64,000 bases of DNA from a virus. Below the pieces are notes generated by a model that worked only from the letters and a program-made list of their open reading frames with translations, was not told the DNA's origin and made no database searches. The position numbers were made by a program, and so were the translations under genes. This document shows, in pieces, positions 15,049 through 20,094 of the stretch. The stretch spans positions 32,001 to 96,000 of the IMG/VR virus record IMGVR_UViG_3300042934_000426. One strand, 5' to 3'. Positions within the stretch are counted from its first letter, which is position 1; every line of letters starts with the position of its first letter.

Positions 15049-18000
15049 TTATGTGTTCAAGTATTCAATGAACTTCGGTAACTTCCGAAGCCCATCACGG
15101 GTACGTTTAATCATGCTATGCTTCGTGAGGATTGCCAGTCGGTCATTCACCTGTTTTCGCTCGAATCCTAACATATCGATAATCTCGGCTGGCTTCAGAA
15201 TATCGTTCTTTCGGAAGAGCTCTAGGATTTCTTCCGATACGGCTACGTTCTCCCCGAAGTCCATGTTTTCAAGGGTTTGGCGAATCTCTTCCGCTTCTTC
15301 TTCGGTCAGCTCGGATTCTTCTTTGCTCTTGGCACTATAAATGTCTAGGCGGGCGTTTTGGTTGTCGTAAATCACTTGGATAAAGTCAGCTACATACTCC
15401 ACATGGTCAGGATTCACAATCACCTTCTCATGCGCTTCGTCGGTTGAATGAAGCAAGCTTGCTAGACTAATAGCCATACGTGCAATCTTCTTCCGAAGGT
15501 CAGACGGCTCTAAAAGCGGAATGTCCTGAGCGTAGCCGTACTTCTCGCCTAACTCGTCAGCCTTCGCTAGAATCTTACGCATAGCGGGCTTCGTAATCTC
15601 AATGTGTTCAGGTTTGCGTGACCACGCCCATAGAATCGAATCCCGAAGAGCTTCGGAAGTGATTAGTTGAACTTCGGGCTTGTCGTATTCCTGATTGAGT
15701 ACCGCCTTCGTGACGTCACCTGACTGAAGGAATATCGCCATATCCAAACGTCTGATATCTGCTGGTGAAGCGAACAACGGTTTTAAGGCTTCTACCCCAT
15801 GCGTGAAGCTCGATAGCGTTCTTGCCTTCGCTGGGTTCGTTAAAAGGATTAATCGGACACGGGCGTTGGTTTCGGTGTTGACCGTACGGTCTACTCGAAG
15901 TACCCCTGTGGTTCTCGCTTCGGTAATCTTACCAAAGTCTTCAGGGTGTAATTCAGAAAATTCGTCGATTGCGATTAGCTTGCGGTCACTAAGCGGGTAT
16001 TTCCCCCAGGTGATGAACCATCGTTCACCCATTTGCTCTAGGCGGTAGACTAATCCTGTACGGGACGTTCCTTCCCCTGACGTCATATTTCCTAGCCCCG
16101 CGAATTCCATAATGTTGCTAACAAGCTGGGTCTTCGCTTGCCCTGAATCTCCGACGAATACCGTTTCCAGCCAGCCACGCTTTTCGAGCTGACCCTGGAA
16201 ATAATAGTTTAAAGCGGAATGGTAGGTTAATAGTACCGCCAGGTGTGGCTCGAAGCGTTCTCGTACCAGGGTCACGTTGTCTACCAGGTCGCCTACTAAC
16301 AGGCTCACTCTATCGTCAATCGTTTCCCCTTCTTGCACCTTGAATACATCTAATCGTTGTCTAGCCTCTTCGGTCATTTCAAACTTTGATATGCTATCCT
16401 CTAACGGCTCTTGCTTTTGGCTCAGAATGGTCGCCATAGCGTTTTTCGGGTGACTATAGACATAACCCTCTAGGTCATAGTGTGTATTCGCCTGTACGTC
16501 ATTTCCGACGGCATACACCTTACGGGTCACGTACTCATTTCCTTCTCCGTCTACTTCCTTCGAAGACCCGTCTTCCCCTTTGACCGTCTTTACACGGTCA
16601 GCCATGGGCACCACTAGGAGCTCGGTGATATTTTCGTGTTCCAGCACTTCGGATTTAACCTTCTTACAGGAAGCTCCTGAATGGTGGAAGAGTATTCCTT
16701 TTAGCTGGGTATCATTTTGGTTGGTGGCTTCGATTAGGAATCGTTCATTTTCATGGAATTCCCGCTCGTATAGCCCACCGAAGTCGTGCATAATACAATC
16801 TTTGTCACAGAACGGTTCATGGCTACATACATAGCGAACCTTCTTTGGCACAATGTAAGGCGTATCCATTTTCCCTGATACCAGGGCGCTAAACGCTACT
16901 TTCTTTCCTGTGAATTCGGCATTAGCTGTCTTCGCTAGGTGCATGTGCTCGGCTGGCTCTTGGTCAATGGCGAAGTCTTCGTGGGCTGGGCATGCACGCC
17001 CCGCACATGGAACGGTTTCATAGTCACGTCCCTTACGCTCTCCTGATAGGCTTCGAATGAAGGCACAACCGAAGTGGTACTTTTGGTCTTCGTACACCGT
17101 TTTAATACACCCAATCGTAGACGCTTGCACTTCCGAAGGAGAAGAGCTAGTGAACGACTTCGGAATCTTTTTGACCCAATCGCACAAAATCTTGACCGTT
17201 TCGCTCATAGGGTAACCAGCGTCTTTATAGTACGAAGCTAGCGCCATTGTCGCTTTGTTACGGTCGCCTGATTTGAGGATTCCACGCTCGATGATAAATT
17301 GAACACATACAGGTACACCTTCCATTTGCTTTAGTACGGTGTCCTTTAGGGTTACACGGTCTGTATAGAGCTTATCAACTTCTTCCCATGCTTCGACTTT
17401 ACTCGCATACCATTCGTGAATGTCTTCGTTCAAATTGTACTCACATTGGTCAGGCGGGTAGAGGTCAGGACGTGGTGACTTTGCCAATCCATTAATGATG
17501 TTCCGAAGGTCGCTTTTCACTTCGTCATGGGTCAGTTCTACTTTGAATAGCCCGCTCTTATAGTGGATGGAATTCACCAGGCGAAGCATGCGACGGGTTC
17601 CGTAAATGGAAGAGGAATCTAAGCTTTTTAGTCCTAGCTGGGTTTCTAAGGTAACCGCGATAAACTTGATAATTCGGTTTAGCTTTTTATGTGGCTGGAT
17701 TCCCATAATCGTCGGATTCGCAATCACATGGAAGCCCTTCGAACCGCTGAAGTACACCCTGATTTCGTCTTCAGTTACCTGAAATCGCTCCGTGAAGTAA
17801 TGAAGAATCTTTACGACGTCACTTCGGCTCATTTCCAGGTTTTTAATCCATACAAAATCAGTACACGCCTGGTCACTGTCCACATAGTCATTAATCGATT
17901 GATTCGTGTCTTTTGATAACGGAATACCCATTTCGTAATTGCGAAGGTGTAATAATAGGTTTTCAGGTAATAGTCCGATTAATTCGTCCGCCTTTACCGC

Positions 18001-18318
18001 TCCCATTTCGACCAGTCCTGGGGCTTCCTGAATAACACCTTCTTTTACTTCCGAAGTAAGACTTCGTGAGCTATCAATATCGAAGAATAACGGCATATAA
18101 AGGAGCTCGGCTTCCCCATCAGGTCTTACCTTGTTACGAAAAGTTTGAATGGTGGAAAATACGTTGTAATTGCCGTATTGTTGCCTGAAGTCTTCCAGCT
18201 TATCCGCTTCGGTGCGGTTCCATTTCGTGTTCACGCCCGTTTGCGGGTTCTTGTGGTAGACGTCCACATAGAGGAAGTCCTCTAGTTTGATTTCGCTTTT
18301 CTTTTTCCCTTTTGCCAT
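15049..18318 (-). CDS. AEP primase fused to MCM-family AAA+ helicase
   Basis: AEP FFDID, YFSGSKGFH, RMLRL; Cys-rich linker; MCM Zn motif, Walker A GDSGQAKTQ, TSRTGL, Walker B IDEF, LLTNP, Arg finger RRLD; C-terminal wHTH. Confidence 0.85.
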   Translation of the reverse strand: MAKGKKKSEIKLEDFLYVDVYHKNPQTGVNTKWNRTEADKLEDFRQQYGNYNVFSTIQTFRNKVRPDGEAELLYMPLFFDIDSSRSLTSEVKEGVIQEAPGLVEMGAVKADELIGLLPENLLLHLRNYEMGIPLSKDTNQSINDYVDSDQACTDFVWIKNLEMSRSDVVKILHYFTERFQVTEDEIRVYFSGSKGFHVIANPTIMGIQPHKKLNRIIKFIAVTLETQLGLKSLDSSSIYGTRRMLRLVNSIHYKSGLFKVELTHDEVKSDLRNIINGLAKSPRPDLYPPDQCEYNLNEDIHEWYASKVEAWEEVDKLYTDRVTLKDTVLKQMEGVPVCVQFIIERGILKSGDRNKATMALASYYKDAGYPMSETVKILCDWVKKIPKSFTSSSPSEVQASTIGCIKTVYEDQKYHFGCAFIRSLSGERKGRDYETVPCAGRACPAHEDFAIDQEPAEHMHLAKTANAEFTGKKVAFSALVSGKMDTPYIVPKKVRYVCSHEPFCDKDCIMHDFGGLYEREFHENERFLIEATNQNDTQLKGILFHHSGASCKKVKSEVLEHENITELLVVPMADRVKTVKGEDGSSKEVDGEGNEYVTRKVYAVGNDVQANTHYDLEGYVYSHPKNAMATILSQKQEPLEDSISKFEMTEEARQRLDVFKVQEGETIDDRVSLLVGDLVDNVTLVRERFEPHLAVLLTYHSALNYYFQGQLEKRGWLETVFVGDSGQAKTQLVSNIMEFAGLGNMTSGEGTSRTGLVYRLEQMGERWFITWGKYPLSDRKLIAIDEFSELHPEDFGKITEARTTGVLRVDRTVNTETNARVRLILLTNPAKARTLSSFTHGVEALKPLFASPADIRRLDMAIFLQSGDVTKAVLNQEYDKPEVQLITSEALRDSILWAWSRKPEHIEITKPAMRKILAKADELGEKYGYAQDIPLLEPSDLRKKIARMAISLASLLHSTDEAHEKVIVNPDHVEYVADFIQVIYDNQNARLDIYSAKSKEESELTEEEAEEIRQTLENMDFGENVAVSEEILELFRKNDILKPAEIIDMLGFERKQVNDRLAILTKHSMIKRTRDGLRKLPKFIEYLNT

Positions 18319-18484: not shown

Positions 18485-19135
18485 CTATTCAGCTTCTACT
18501 ACGCCTACGTTTTCAAATTCTACACGGCTATAACGAATTTTCTTGTCGTTACGGTTTTCCTGACGGCTGATTGTCATTTTCGTATAGATTTGGTTGATGG
18601 CGAAGCCCGCTTTGGCTTGTGCTTTTACGTAGTCGATAAAGTTCATAGCGGAAGCGGTCGGAAGCGTCATGATGTACTCAGTCGGCTCACCTTCTTCGCC
18701 TTCTTCGAACCAGCGAATTTCGAATTTCAATTTATATCGGTCGTCTAATTTCGTGTCGCTATTGTTGTACTTATTGTTGTCTTCGTCAAACCATTGATAG
18801 AAGCGTTTTCCGAAGCTTACAACCATTATAATCTCCGTAGCTGTTTCATTGCTTGCTTTGTAAAGGAAGTTTGTTCCGTCGATGGATACGTAATTACCGC
18901 CACCTGTGATATCGTCGATATTATCCAGGATTCCAGCGTTCATAACCGCCATTTGATTCGGGTTGTTGTTTACGGCTGGTGTTGCAGATTGGTTACGTGG
19001 TGCTGGTGTTTGGTTTGTCATGTGATTACCCCCGTTTTGAACTGTTTGCTGATTTGCATGTTGGTCTACGTTACCCGCTGGTACTGAGGTTGTTTGGGCT
19101 TTTGGTGCTCCCCCACGATTTGCTCTTAATGCCAT
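18485..19135 (-). CDS. putative ssDNA-binding/recombination protein
   Basis: Low-complexity N-terminus plus beta-rich domain, next to primase-helicase; true start ATG 19135 (RBS AGGTGG). Confidence 0.5.
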   Translation of the reverse strand: MALRANRGGAPKAQTTSVPAGNVDQHANQQTVQNGGNHMTNQTPAPRNQSATPAVNNNPNQMAVMNAGILDNIDDITGGGNYVSIDGTNFLYKASNETATEIIMVVSFGKRFYQWFDEDNNKYNNSDTKLDDRYKLKFEIRWFEEGEEGEPTEYIMTLPTASAMNFIDYVKAQAKAGFAINQIYTKMTISRQENRNDKKIRYSRVEFENVGVVEAE

Positions 19136-19617
19136 AATGTTTTCCACCTTTCTGTCAGCTATCGGCTGAACACTGTAATATGATTTGCGGTAGCCTTCGA
19201 TTTGGTCTACCAAAAGTGATTCGAAGACGCTCGGCACAGTTCCACGTTTAGCTCACTCATTTCGTCAATCCCGCTTAGTGTCTATGCAAGTATCTATTGC
19301 GGGAGAAAGTGAGCGTGTACTGTCTTGCCTTTACGAATTTCCTACCCCTAGGTCGTTCGTTTGCGTGGGGTACTTCGAATCAGCTTTTGCTAGACCGAAG
19401 GGAGCGTCGGTGTAAATCCACCGATACTTTGTTGGTTTGACCCCGCCTATTTCGGTCTACCGAAAAGGGTTCATTACCTGGACTGATTACCAGCTTTGGT
19501 GGGATTTACGGTGTTTACCGTTCAGCCGTACTTTCGCCCGCTTAAAAGGGGTACTATTCAGCCATACTAAGAATTGACCTAACCCGTTATGAACGCCTTT
19601 CGCTAGACCGAAGCGTG
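19136..19617 (-). ncRNA. putative structured non-coding RNA with two domains
   Basis: Long stems 19201-19226/19373-19399 and 19451-19474/19589-19612, with internal helices; no credible ORF. Confidence 0.6.
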
Positions 19618-19860
19618 TTAAGCTTCAAGTCCCTGGCTCTTTAAGAAGTTAGCCAGCCCGCTTTGCGGGAAACGACGTACTTTATGTTTTCCTTCAGGAT
19701 TAATCACCGTATAGGGAATGTTGAAGTCTTCTAGCACCCGATAAAAGGTGTTTCGGCTTTGGCAAGGGAAGCCCTTGCTACTAAGGTAATCCATGGCTTG
19801 TTGCATTGTCAACATTTTATCGTCTACTAGGATTGCTTTTGCTTGCTTTGCTTTCGCCAC
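19618..19860 (-). CDS. excisionase/MerR-like HTH DNA-binding protein
   Basis: MLTMQQAMDYL...SRNTFYR...VRRF..GLANFL; GTG 19860 preceded by RBS AGGAGC. Confidence 0.7.
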   Translation of the reverse strand: MAKAKQAKAILVDDKMLTMQQAMDYLSSKGFPCQSRNTFYRVLEDFNIPYTVINPEGKHKVRRFPQSGLANFLKSQGLEA

Positions 19861-19919
19861 TTGCCTTCCGCTCCTTTCTTGTTTGAAGTTGTTCACCGTT
19901 GTTTAACTTTATATTTCTC

Positions 19920-19948
19920 ATTATAGAGGTGTCCTATACGTTTGTCAA
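19920..19948 (-). promoter_or_regulatory. consensus sigmaA promoter for the HTH-ncRNA-SSB unit
   Basis: TTGACA-17 bp-TATAAT, preceded by TTGTTCAAAGTTG. Confidence 0.85.
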
Positions 19949-20094
19949 CAACTTTGAACAAAATTATTTTATCGGTTTAGAGAATGTTTTATGACACGAA
20001 TAGCAAACGTAATCTATTTCTGTATCACCTGGAAAAATAACCAAAAAGTCTGTGTCTGTACTTCCACAGTTAGGGCAACCTACTTTATTAGCTG

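Follow-up and report, generated by a model that had tools for sequence, protein, structure and literature searches.

One conserved closing helix on differing folded modules, probably RNA, beside the primase-MCM genes of uncultured phages

Results

Genes around the gap

The DNA analysed here (the window, 64,000 nt) spans bases 32001-96000 of a virus record of 104,950 bp with direct terminal repeats; a soil metagenome was the sole sequencing run containing the locus and is probably its source. All genes around the gap of interest lie on the minus strand, in the order promoter, 80-aa helix-turn-helix (HTH) gene, gap, 216-aa gene with a predicted OB fold and primase-MCM gene (Table 1). The promoter block TTTTGTTCAAAGTTGTTGACA is kept in two relatives, L005 and L006, and no minus-strand terminator was found between the promoter and the 216-aa gene. 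An inverted repeat, TTGTTTGAAGTTGTT / AACAACTTTGAACAA (window 19879-19893 and 19947-19961), flanks the promoter of the HTH operon, and its upstream copy is kept, together with the -35 box, in the same two relatives. This repeat is likely an operator, separate from the closing-helix motif described below.

The 80-aa HTH protein shares 60-64% identity with its relatives' copies (alignment A3). Its match to HTH_17 (Xis/MerR-type) is weak, found in three of three members with a best E of 0.0024 that falls below Pfam's cut-off, and it also matched the PHROG 'HTH DNA binding protein' (E 0.0077). For the 216-aa protein (a member of what we call the 220-aa protein family), residues 75-216 of the AlphaFold model had pLDDT >90. 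The top fold match was 9teh_I, a fusion of PhiC31 integrase with its recombination directionality factor (RDF) (Z 8.1, a middling score, over 131 residues), followed by OB-fold single-strand binders such as T4 gp32 (Z 4-5); neither a Pfam family nor a solved relative by sequence was found, and Foldseek returned nothing at E ≤0.001. The model suggests, at the level of a middling match, an OB-fold protein resembling the PhiC31 RDF gp3. The label 'SSB-like', given to this neighbour in a sequence-only reading of the window, thus fits loosely as regards the OB fold, but the closest structure is gp3.

GTG 19237, which lies within module B, opens the longest ORF of the 216-aa gene, and the protein collection includes a 250-aa version (P0004); the true start is ATG 19135 (MALRA...), since in all relatives the protein begins at the conserved MAL(K/R)A and a ribosome-binding site is present. 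As the sequence-only reading had it, the gap is without a credible ORF: none of ≥30 aa lies on its minus strand except this GTG extension of the downstream gene, which is absent from relatives. In several relatives, as in the window (UCAGCCGAUAGCUGA, 19150-19170) and L006 (UGUUCAGCACAUAGCGAACA, L006:3135-3160), a small hairpin lies just 5' of the ribosome-binding site that serves the 220-aa gene.

Table 1. Features of the locus (window coordinates unless a relative is named)
Feature	Position	Strand	Remarks
Consensus sigma-A promoter, TTGACA-17-TATAAT	19920..19948	-	12/12 hexamer matches
80-aa Xis/MerR-like HTH gene	19618..19860	-	Stop codon 5 nt ahead of module A
Gap with modules	19136-19617	-	From HTH gene to 216-aa gene
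Module A (type A, ~164 nt)	19449..19614	-	5' arm 19612-19586, 3' arm 19477-19451
Module A mismatches	G-G 19603/19460	-	Also conserved C-C at +8
Small hairpin	19406..19425	-	In 50-nt linker between modules A and B
Module B (type B, ~200 nt)	19201..19399	-	5' arm 19399-19373, 3' arm 19226-19201
Module B mismatch	G-G 19390/19210	-	
Module B core helix	ACCCC 19371-19367 / GGGGU 19348-19344	-	
Module B crossing helix (putative pseudoknot)	ACGC 19366-19363 / GCGU 19230-19227	-	
Module B further helix	GGCAA 19329-19325 / UGCC 19236-19233	-	Surrounds lineage-specific 88-nt insert
216-aa predicted OB-fold gene (220-aa protein family)	18485..19135	-	
Primase-MCM gene	15049-18318	-	PHROG 18685, E 5e-230; MCM P-loop
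Type A relatives	L025:1980-2091, L011:2710-2894, L005:2682-2905		Alignment A7
Type B relatives	L006:2982-3111, L025:2147-2381		

Two stems with a common start

Four 15-mers, TTYGGTCTASCRAAA, alternate in orientation across the gap, at 19201(+), 19385(-), 19451(+) and 19598(-); the last had been placed at 19597 by the sequence-only reading, which was otherwise right about them. With ≤2 mismatches allowed, there were five matches against 1.1 expected, a count reached in 0 of 100 shuffles, the fifth (19450-19464, -) being the third site on the opposite strand. No copies lie outside the locus in the 104,950-bp genome. Inverted-repeat arms of 27 nt each enclose 108 nt in module A, and arms at 19212-19226/19373-19387 enclose 146 nt in module B.

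Two long stems with a common start had been described, and both are there: on the minus strand each opens with UUCGGUCUA-G-C and closes with G-G-UAGACC. They have the same G-G mismatch, also as described, and run on into distal parts that are unlike yet paired (GUUCAU/AUGAAC in one, UGAUUCGAAG/CUUCGAAUCA in the other). That unrelated distal parts should stay paired indicates that the arms pair with each other. The folding energy of the 485 nt is -161 kcal/mol, compared with -127 ± 6.6 in shuffles (z = -5.1), and the opposite strand has an equal folding score. Because the outer helix is common to modules A and B, pairing between arms of different modules, and hence alternative folds, are possible: the 3' arm of module A can pair with the 5' arm of module B (19451-19465 with 19385-19399; 15 nt at 87% complementarity, with 51 nt between), and the 5' arm of module A likewise with the 3' arm of module B.

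Relatives of the locus

Queries for finding relatives in IMG/VR and in metagenome contigs were primase-MCM, an alignment of HTH proteins and alignments of the 220-aa family. We found 62 protein relatives of the 220-aa protein, which imply some 50 further loci; the module set comes from about a dozen distinct loci, in phages of ~80-107 kb. All of these loci have the order promoter, HTH, gap, 220-aa gene and primase-MCM, and no complete gap is without an element that has a closing helix of this kind. The 13 distinct modules (54-235 nt) are A and B of the window, two from L025 and those of L005, L006, L011, L015, L018, L020, L023, L027 and L036. The first module usually starts 4-20 nt past the HTH stop, and the last invariably leaves 55-105 nt to the start codon of the 220-aa gene. 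Four complete genomes scanned for the motif had high-scoring closing helices in this gap only.

Among INPHARED phages there was no DNA match to the gap and no protein match to the 220-aa protein, and 185,579 prokaryote genomes held no relatives of that protein. Scanning IMG/VR with a single 220-aa protein gave no match, and a richer alignment gave no new IMG/VR loci. In IMG/VR, a 22-base pattern from the 3' block of type B modules (see below) matched only the L006/L007 contigs, and the genome collection gave no match. The cultured Bacillus phage vB_BboS-125 (L062, MH884509.1 27561-31663) is a distant relative that encodes an HTH protein, a 245-aa hypothetical protein and primase-MCM in that order; it has 21 nt between the HTH gene and the next gene and no module, which indicates that the module-bearing gap is specific to the uncultured family of ~100-kb phages.

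The closing helix is conserved and covaries

In all 13 modules the closing helix, 17-28 bp including mismatches, consists of a 9-bp outer helix, a central mismatch and an inner helix. The outer helix (-9 to -1) has the consensus UUCAGCCUA / UAGGCUGAA, extended by three additional pairs in L036. Position 0 is G-G in 11 of the 13 modules and G-C in L005 and L011, and the inner helix runs from +1 to about +8, at most to +17. Three type A modules also have a C-C mismatch at +8. Where the others read CUAGC/GGUAG, L020 reads CCGGC/GGCGG, two adjacent compensatory changes with the G-G retained.

We counted covariation in two ways. In a table anchored on the central base (13 modules, 17 positions), 93.2% of cells were paired against 71.2 ± 1.8% after column shuffles (0 of 2000 reached the observed value), and 16 of the 17 positions showed at least two Watson-Crick pair types. 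In a MAFFT alignment (A8) restricted to the 13 safest pairs, 92.7% of cells were paired against 79.6% in shuffles, 10 of the 13 pairs were compensatory and the covariation score was 0.484 against 0.227, with 0 of 500 shuffles reaching the observed values; slid controls were 22-47% paired. Covariation in homologs, proposed as a check on the first reading, is therefore abundant in the closing helix.

Modules of the same genome have a common outer helix and a differing inner helix whose complementarity is intact: in the window, +2 is G-C in one module and A-U in the other, and modules 1 and 2 of L025 differ at +2 and +3. Operator co-evolution cannot explain inner helices that differ between paralogs and yet remain complementary. 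Likewise, the recurrence of the same mismatches (G-G, and C-C at +8) across lineages argues for a folded single strand rather than duplex repeats.

Interiors differ between modules

Inside the closing helix, the type A modules (window A, the first of L025, L011 and L005) share UAGCGnAAGGnG at the 5' end and a matching 3' block, and their interiors align poorly to each other. The type B modules (window B, L006 and the second of L025) have a core of fixed spacing that consists of GAAG, ACCYC, a 4-nt strand, a hairpin with GRGGU as its loop or 3' strand, GUAAAGGCRA, a variable insert of 20-124 nt, UGCCRAG, the partner 4-nt strand and CUUCG. Both ACCYC/GRGGU (CCCC/GGGG versus CCUC/GAGG) and the 4-nt helix (ACGC/GCGU, CCGC/GCGG, CCAC/GUGG) covary; because the two cross, type B would form a pseudoknot, for which the comparison of three sequences is suggestive. 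Including the crossing helices, 94.9% of type B cells were paired against 86.5% in shuffles, with 11 compensatory pairs and slid controls at 34-51%, while RNAalifold alone found 35 pairs, 9 of them compensatory. With three type B and four type A sequences, covariation in the interiors is thin. In L006, the hairpin that matches type B has U-G pairs that exist on the gene strand only.

Several interior helices had been proposed for the window from its sequence. All are in the minimum-energy fold, and UACCCC/GGGGUA covaries, but ACAGU, GCUCACU and CCCGC lie inside the insert that relatives lack. The pseudoknot then suggested, ACGAA/UUCGU, gives way to other paired sequences in relatives. Covariation does support a pseudoknot-like crossing helix in domain B.

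Six modules (L015, L018, L020, L023, L027 and L036; 54-139 nt) are of neither type. The four shortest are hardly more than extended hairpins, L023 measuring 54 nt in total. Relative to the genes, the seven modules of types A and B all point the same way. Among the relatives, some have A alone, some B alone, some both, and others a shorter module of neither type. The sequence-only reading had taken the gap for a candidate two-domain RNA; two independently closed domains and a shared stem conserved in 13 modules bear out part of this, but A and B are paralogous module types, found singly in relatives, and not halves of one RNA.

Interiors are exchanged, and the gap can hold a tRNA gene

L015 and L027 have flanks that are ~97% identical and modules whose interior and inner helix are unrelated (L015:3270-3390 / L027:460-560). 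Divergence begins just inside CCUAGCA and ends just before UGGUAGG, with the outer helix kept; breakpoints at the conserved core of the outer helix point to cassette-like replacement. At the window locus, contigs of the source run showed a single form, without variants, as far as contigs, which drop rare variants, can reveal.

A tRNA-Ile(UAU) gene lies in the same gap, on the same strand and outside the module, in L015, L017, L027 and L028. In this lineage (L017:2700-3310; also L015, L027:1-480 and L028) the gap between the HTH and 220-aa genes is ~800 nt and contains further hairpins ahead of the closing-helix module, as well as, in the L015/L017/L027 lineage, two tRNA-like pieces with a D-arm and a GGTTCGATTCC T-arm (GGUUCGAUUCC T-arms) that received no ARAGORN call; a relaxed ARAGORN run on the L017 gap gave one dubious intron-containing call that joined two such pieces. 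The gap of this lineage looks like a small RNA-gene island.

Known families and strand signals

No Rfam 15 family matched the 64-kb window at the gathering threshold, as expected from the first reading, which recognised no known family. A permissive search of 18900-19950 (E up to 10) gave a best E of 0.48 with scores far below gathering, Rfam searches of 11 relatives found tRNA only, and ARAGORN found no tRNA or tmRNA in the window. Neither the genome nor any of five relatives (four of them complete by estimate and one 83% complete) has a reverse transcriptase (PF00078), and the genome has no Ro/TROVE gene (PF05731), with positive controls in both searches; no RNase III gene was found in the phage genome.

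Several candidates were set aside on these grounds. A retron was rejected for the lack of a reverse transcriptase in these six genomes, a Ro/Y RNA (YrlA) system for the lack of a TROVE gene and of an Rfam match, and a phage-encoded RNase III because the genome has no such gene. A MITE or other dispersed repeat does not fit a 15-mer and closing helices that are confined to one locus per genome. The single-strand origin ssoA has a conserved TAGCGT box; here TAGCG lies within a stem and not in a terminal loop, and this candidate too was dropped.

As to strand, the sense fold was more stable than the antisense fold in 9 of 13 modules (summed, -749.5 versus -711.6 kcal/mol); the exceptions were window B, L020, L023 and L005, the last by 12 kcal/mol. 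Within the helix (-9 to +8) there were 9 G-U and 8 A-C mismatches, which gives no strand signal.

Discussion

The element at this locus is very probably a genuine, conserved folded element, given its covarying closing helix. It probably acts as RNA on the gene strand, as suggested by the promoter without a following terminator, the tRNA-Ile gene that some relatives have in this gap on the gene strand, the type B pseudoknot and its strand-specific U-G pairs, the greater stability of the sense folds and the fixed orientation of types A and B.

For how it would work, the reading that we favour, to which we give a little under an even chance on the comparative analysis, is that the modules are RNAs transcribed with the operon, and that a double-strand RNase of the host recognises and cuts the helix that they share. 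The gap would be a slot for RNA genes in an early operon, in which the sigma-A promoter drives the HTH gene, one or two structured RNA modules and the OB-fold and primase-MCM genes. Each module would fold independently, its ends forming the conserved 17-28-bp helix, and this helix would be the common functional handle, recognised and cut by a host enzyme of the RNase III or Mini-III type. Cleavage may both free the interior as a stable small RNA and split the HTH message from that of the replication genes, and the interior may be an exchangeable payload, be it type A, pseudoknotted type B or a short hairpin. Any cleavage would rely on the host, as an RNase III gene is absent from the phage. 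The cleavage step, taken by itself, is a tentative proposal that we hold to be somewhat less likely than its converse, and we know of no RNase III requirement for a conserved mismatch.

A narrower account, unlikely in our judgement though ahead of the other rivals, is a purely cis-acting mRNA structure in which the helix stabilises, insulates or regulates the flanking cistrons; as a stem it would protect the 3' end of the HTH message and give the replication genes a 5' stem or a control of translation, and the interiors would have no function of their own. This would accord with the 55-105 nt that always lie between the last module and the 220-aa gene, with a module as short as the 54-nt hairpin of L023 and with interiors swapped between near-identical phages. 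The spacing of the first module would also suit it, since a ribosome terminating 4-20 nt upstream would melt the outer helix. However, both type A and type B persist in lineages that have diverged, and B has a pseudoknotted core, which is more structure than a stabilising stem needs; a tRNA gene occupies the same slot, and we did not find alternative pairing with the ribosome-binding site.

Rather less likely is a role in DNA, in which the arms would extrude a hairpin or cruciform while the DNA is single-stranded or supercoiled, either to load primase-MCM and the OB-fold protein for replication or as a cassette-exchange site or invertible segment. The location in a replication module, next to the OB-fold protein and primase-helicase, speaks for such a role, as do the near-equal G-U and A-C counts and nearly symmetric folding energies. 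The identical outer helix in both modules of one genome suggests concerted evolution, the L015/L027 swap has its breakpoints at the conserved arms, and both neighbouring proteins resemble recombination directionality factors. Against this, the same mismatches are kept in both arms across lineages, the type B helices cross, the seven type A and B modules all have one orientation and the source contigs show a single form; moreover, a primase-MCM replicon can do without a module, as vB_BboS-125 shows.

It is improbable, too, that the helix is foremost a docking site for a specific protein of the phage (HTH, OB-fold) or the host, within a ribonucleoprotein in which cleavage is secondary. The conserved sequence around the G-G (YUA-G-C / G-G-UAR), an outer-helix sequence that is specific to each genome and common to both its modules, and the invariable linkage of both flanking genes to the element would fit docking. 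That linkage is partly built in, however, as the same genes served to find the loci, and what the HTH family binds is duplex DNA. L005 and L011 tolerate G-C in place of G-G. A bolder form, which we also hold to be unlikely, has modular phage RNA cassettes whose universal G-G helix docks with, or is processed by, one dedicated protein and whose payloads, unrelated structured RNAs, pass from phage to phage by recombination at the arms, in the manner of gene cassettes; such payloads could be decoys or regulators against host defence or replication machinery.

By far the least likely is that the modules are retron-like non-coding RNAs, or decoys for the retrons of the host, with the outer helix as a1/a2 and the G after UA as the branching G (in a comparison with the Ec86 sequence), given the missing reverse transcriptase, a helix that extends 5-17 bp past the G, unlike that of retron transcripts, and the lack of an Rfam match.

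Non-coding RNAs of phages are poorly charted, and the modules are a covariation-supported family without a database entry. Their organisation is unusual, with one conserved helix on at least two different conserved folds and on several short hairpins. If the helix is a signal for processing or docking, it would be a portable tag for the release of structured RNAs in Firmicutes phages and a handle for finding the partner enzyme, and the pseudoknotted core of type B would be a candidate new functional RNA. If instead it acts in DNA, it would mark a signal for replication or recombination in primase-MCM phages that has so far gone unrecognised.

Structured RNAs that phages encode next to tRNA genes include GOLLD, ROOL and the stable RNAs of the T4 tRNA cluster. 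Like these, the modules are phage-encoded, structured and non-coding, and one module lineage shares its slot with tRNA-Ile. GOLLD and ROOL are ~600-800 nt long, compared with 54-235 nt here; the modules have no Rfam match to those families and, unlike them, share a closing helix and have exchangeable interiors. Invertons and MITEs resemble the modules in their inverted repeats (here 17-28 bp around 23-190 bp) and in interiors swapped between near-identical backbones. The modules differ from them in occupying one locus per genome, in the arm asymmetries G-G and C-C, in a fixed orientation with no adjacent recombinase and, for invertons, in the single form seen in source contigs, from which rare variants are dropped.

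In retron non-coding RNAs, terminal inverted repeats hybridise and a conserved G lies at the inner end (PMC7736814). The modules resemble msr-msd in part, with inverted-repeat ends, a conserved G, here facing G at the inner end of a 9-bp helix, and hairpins inside, features that would speak for a retron-like reading (PMC7736814). They are unlike it in lacking a reverse transcriptase in six related genomes and in a helix that runs on past the conserved G, which is not part of the retron description (PMC7736814).

Closest to the reading that we favour, cleavage by a host enzyme, are the helices cut by RNase III and Mini-III, such as those of rRNA and scRNA precursors, of long-range mRNA duplexes in B. 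subtilis and of intercistronic sites in phages. RNase III of B. subtilis is reported to make paired-site cuts in long-range intramolecular duplexes and to process the scRNA precursor on both sides (PMC11780869); in such substrates, as in the modules, flanks pair over about two helical turns around tens to hundreds of nt within a polycistronic transcript (PMC11780869). At 17-28 bp in 13 of 13 modules, the closing helices are of the length of RNase III duplexes, ~20 bp or more. For BsMiniIII the favoured site is ACC^U, with AUC^U cleaved as well (PMC4357697). The tetranucleotide whose last base is the U of UAG reads ACCU in one module, GCCU in six, GUCU in three and GCUU, GUUU or GCCC in the others. 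In most modules the outer helix has RYCU-A-G, and the YCU-A step beside the mismatch bears a loose resemblance to this preference, a lead only. Unlike the modules, RNase III and Mini-III substrates are not reported to need a conserved sequence and a G-G mismatch. Judged by sequence comparison, with no match in Rfam, cultured phages or bacterial genomes, the modules are a previously undescribed family, and what sets them apart from known processing stems, on the alignments, is that one and the same helix, conserved in sequence and structure, closes several different and unrelated interiors.
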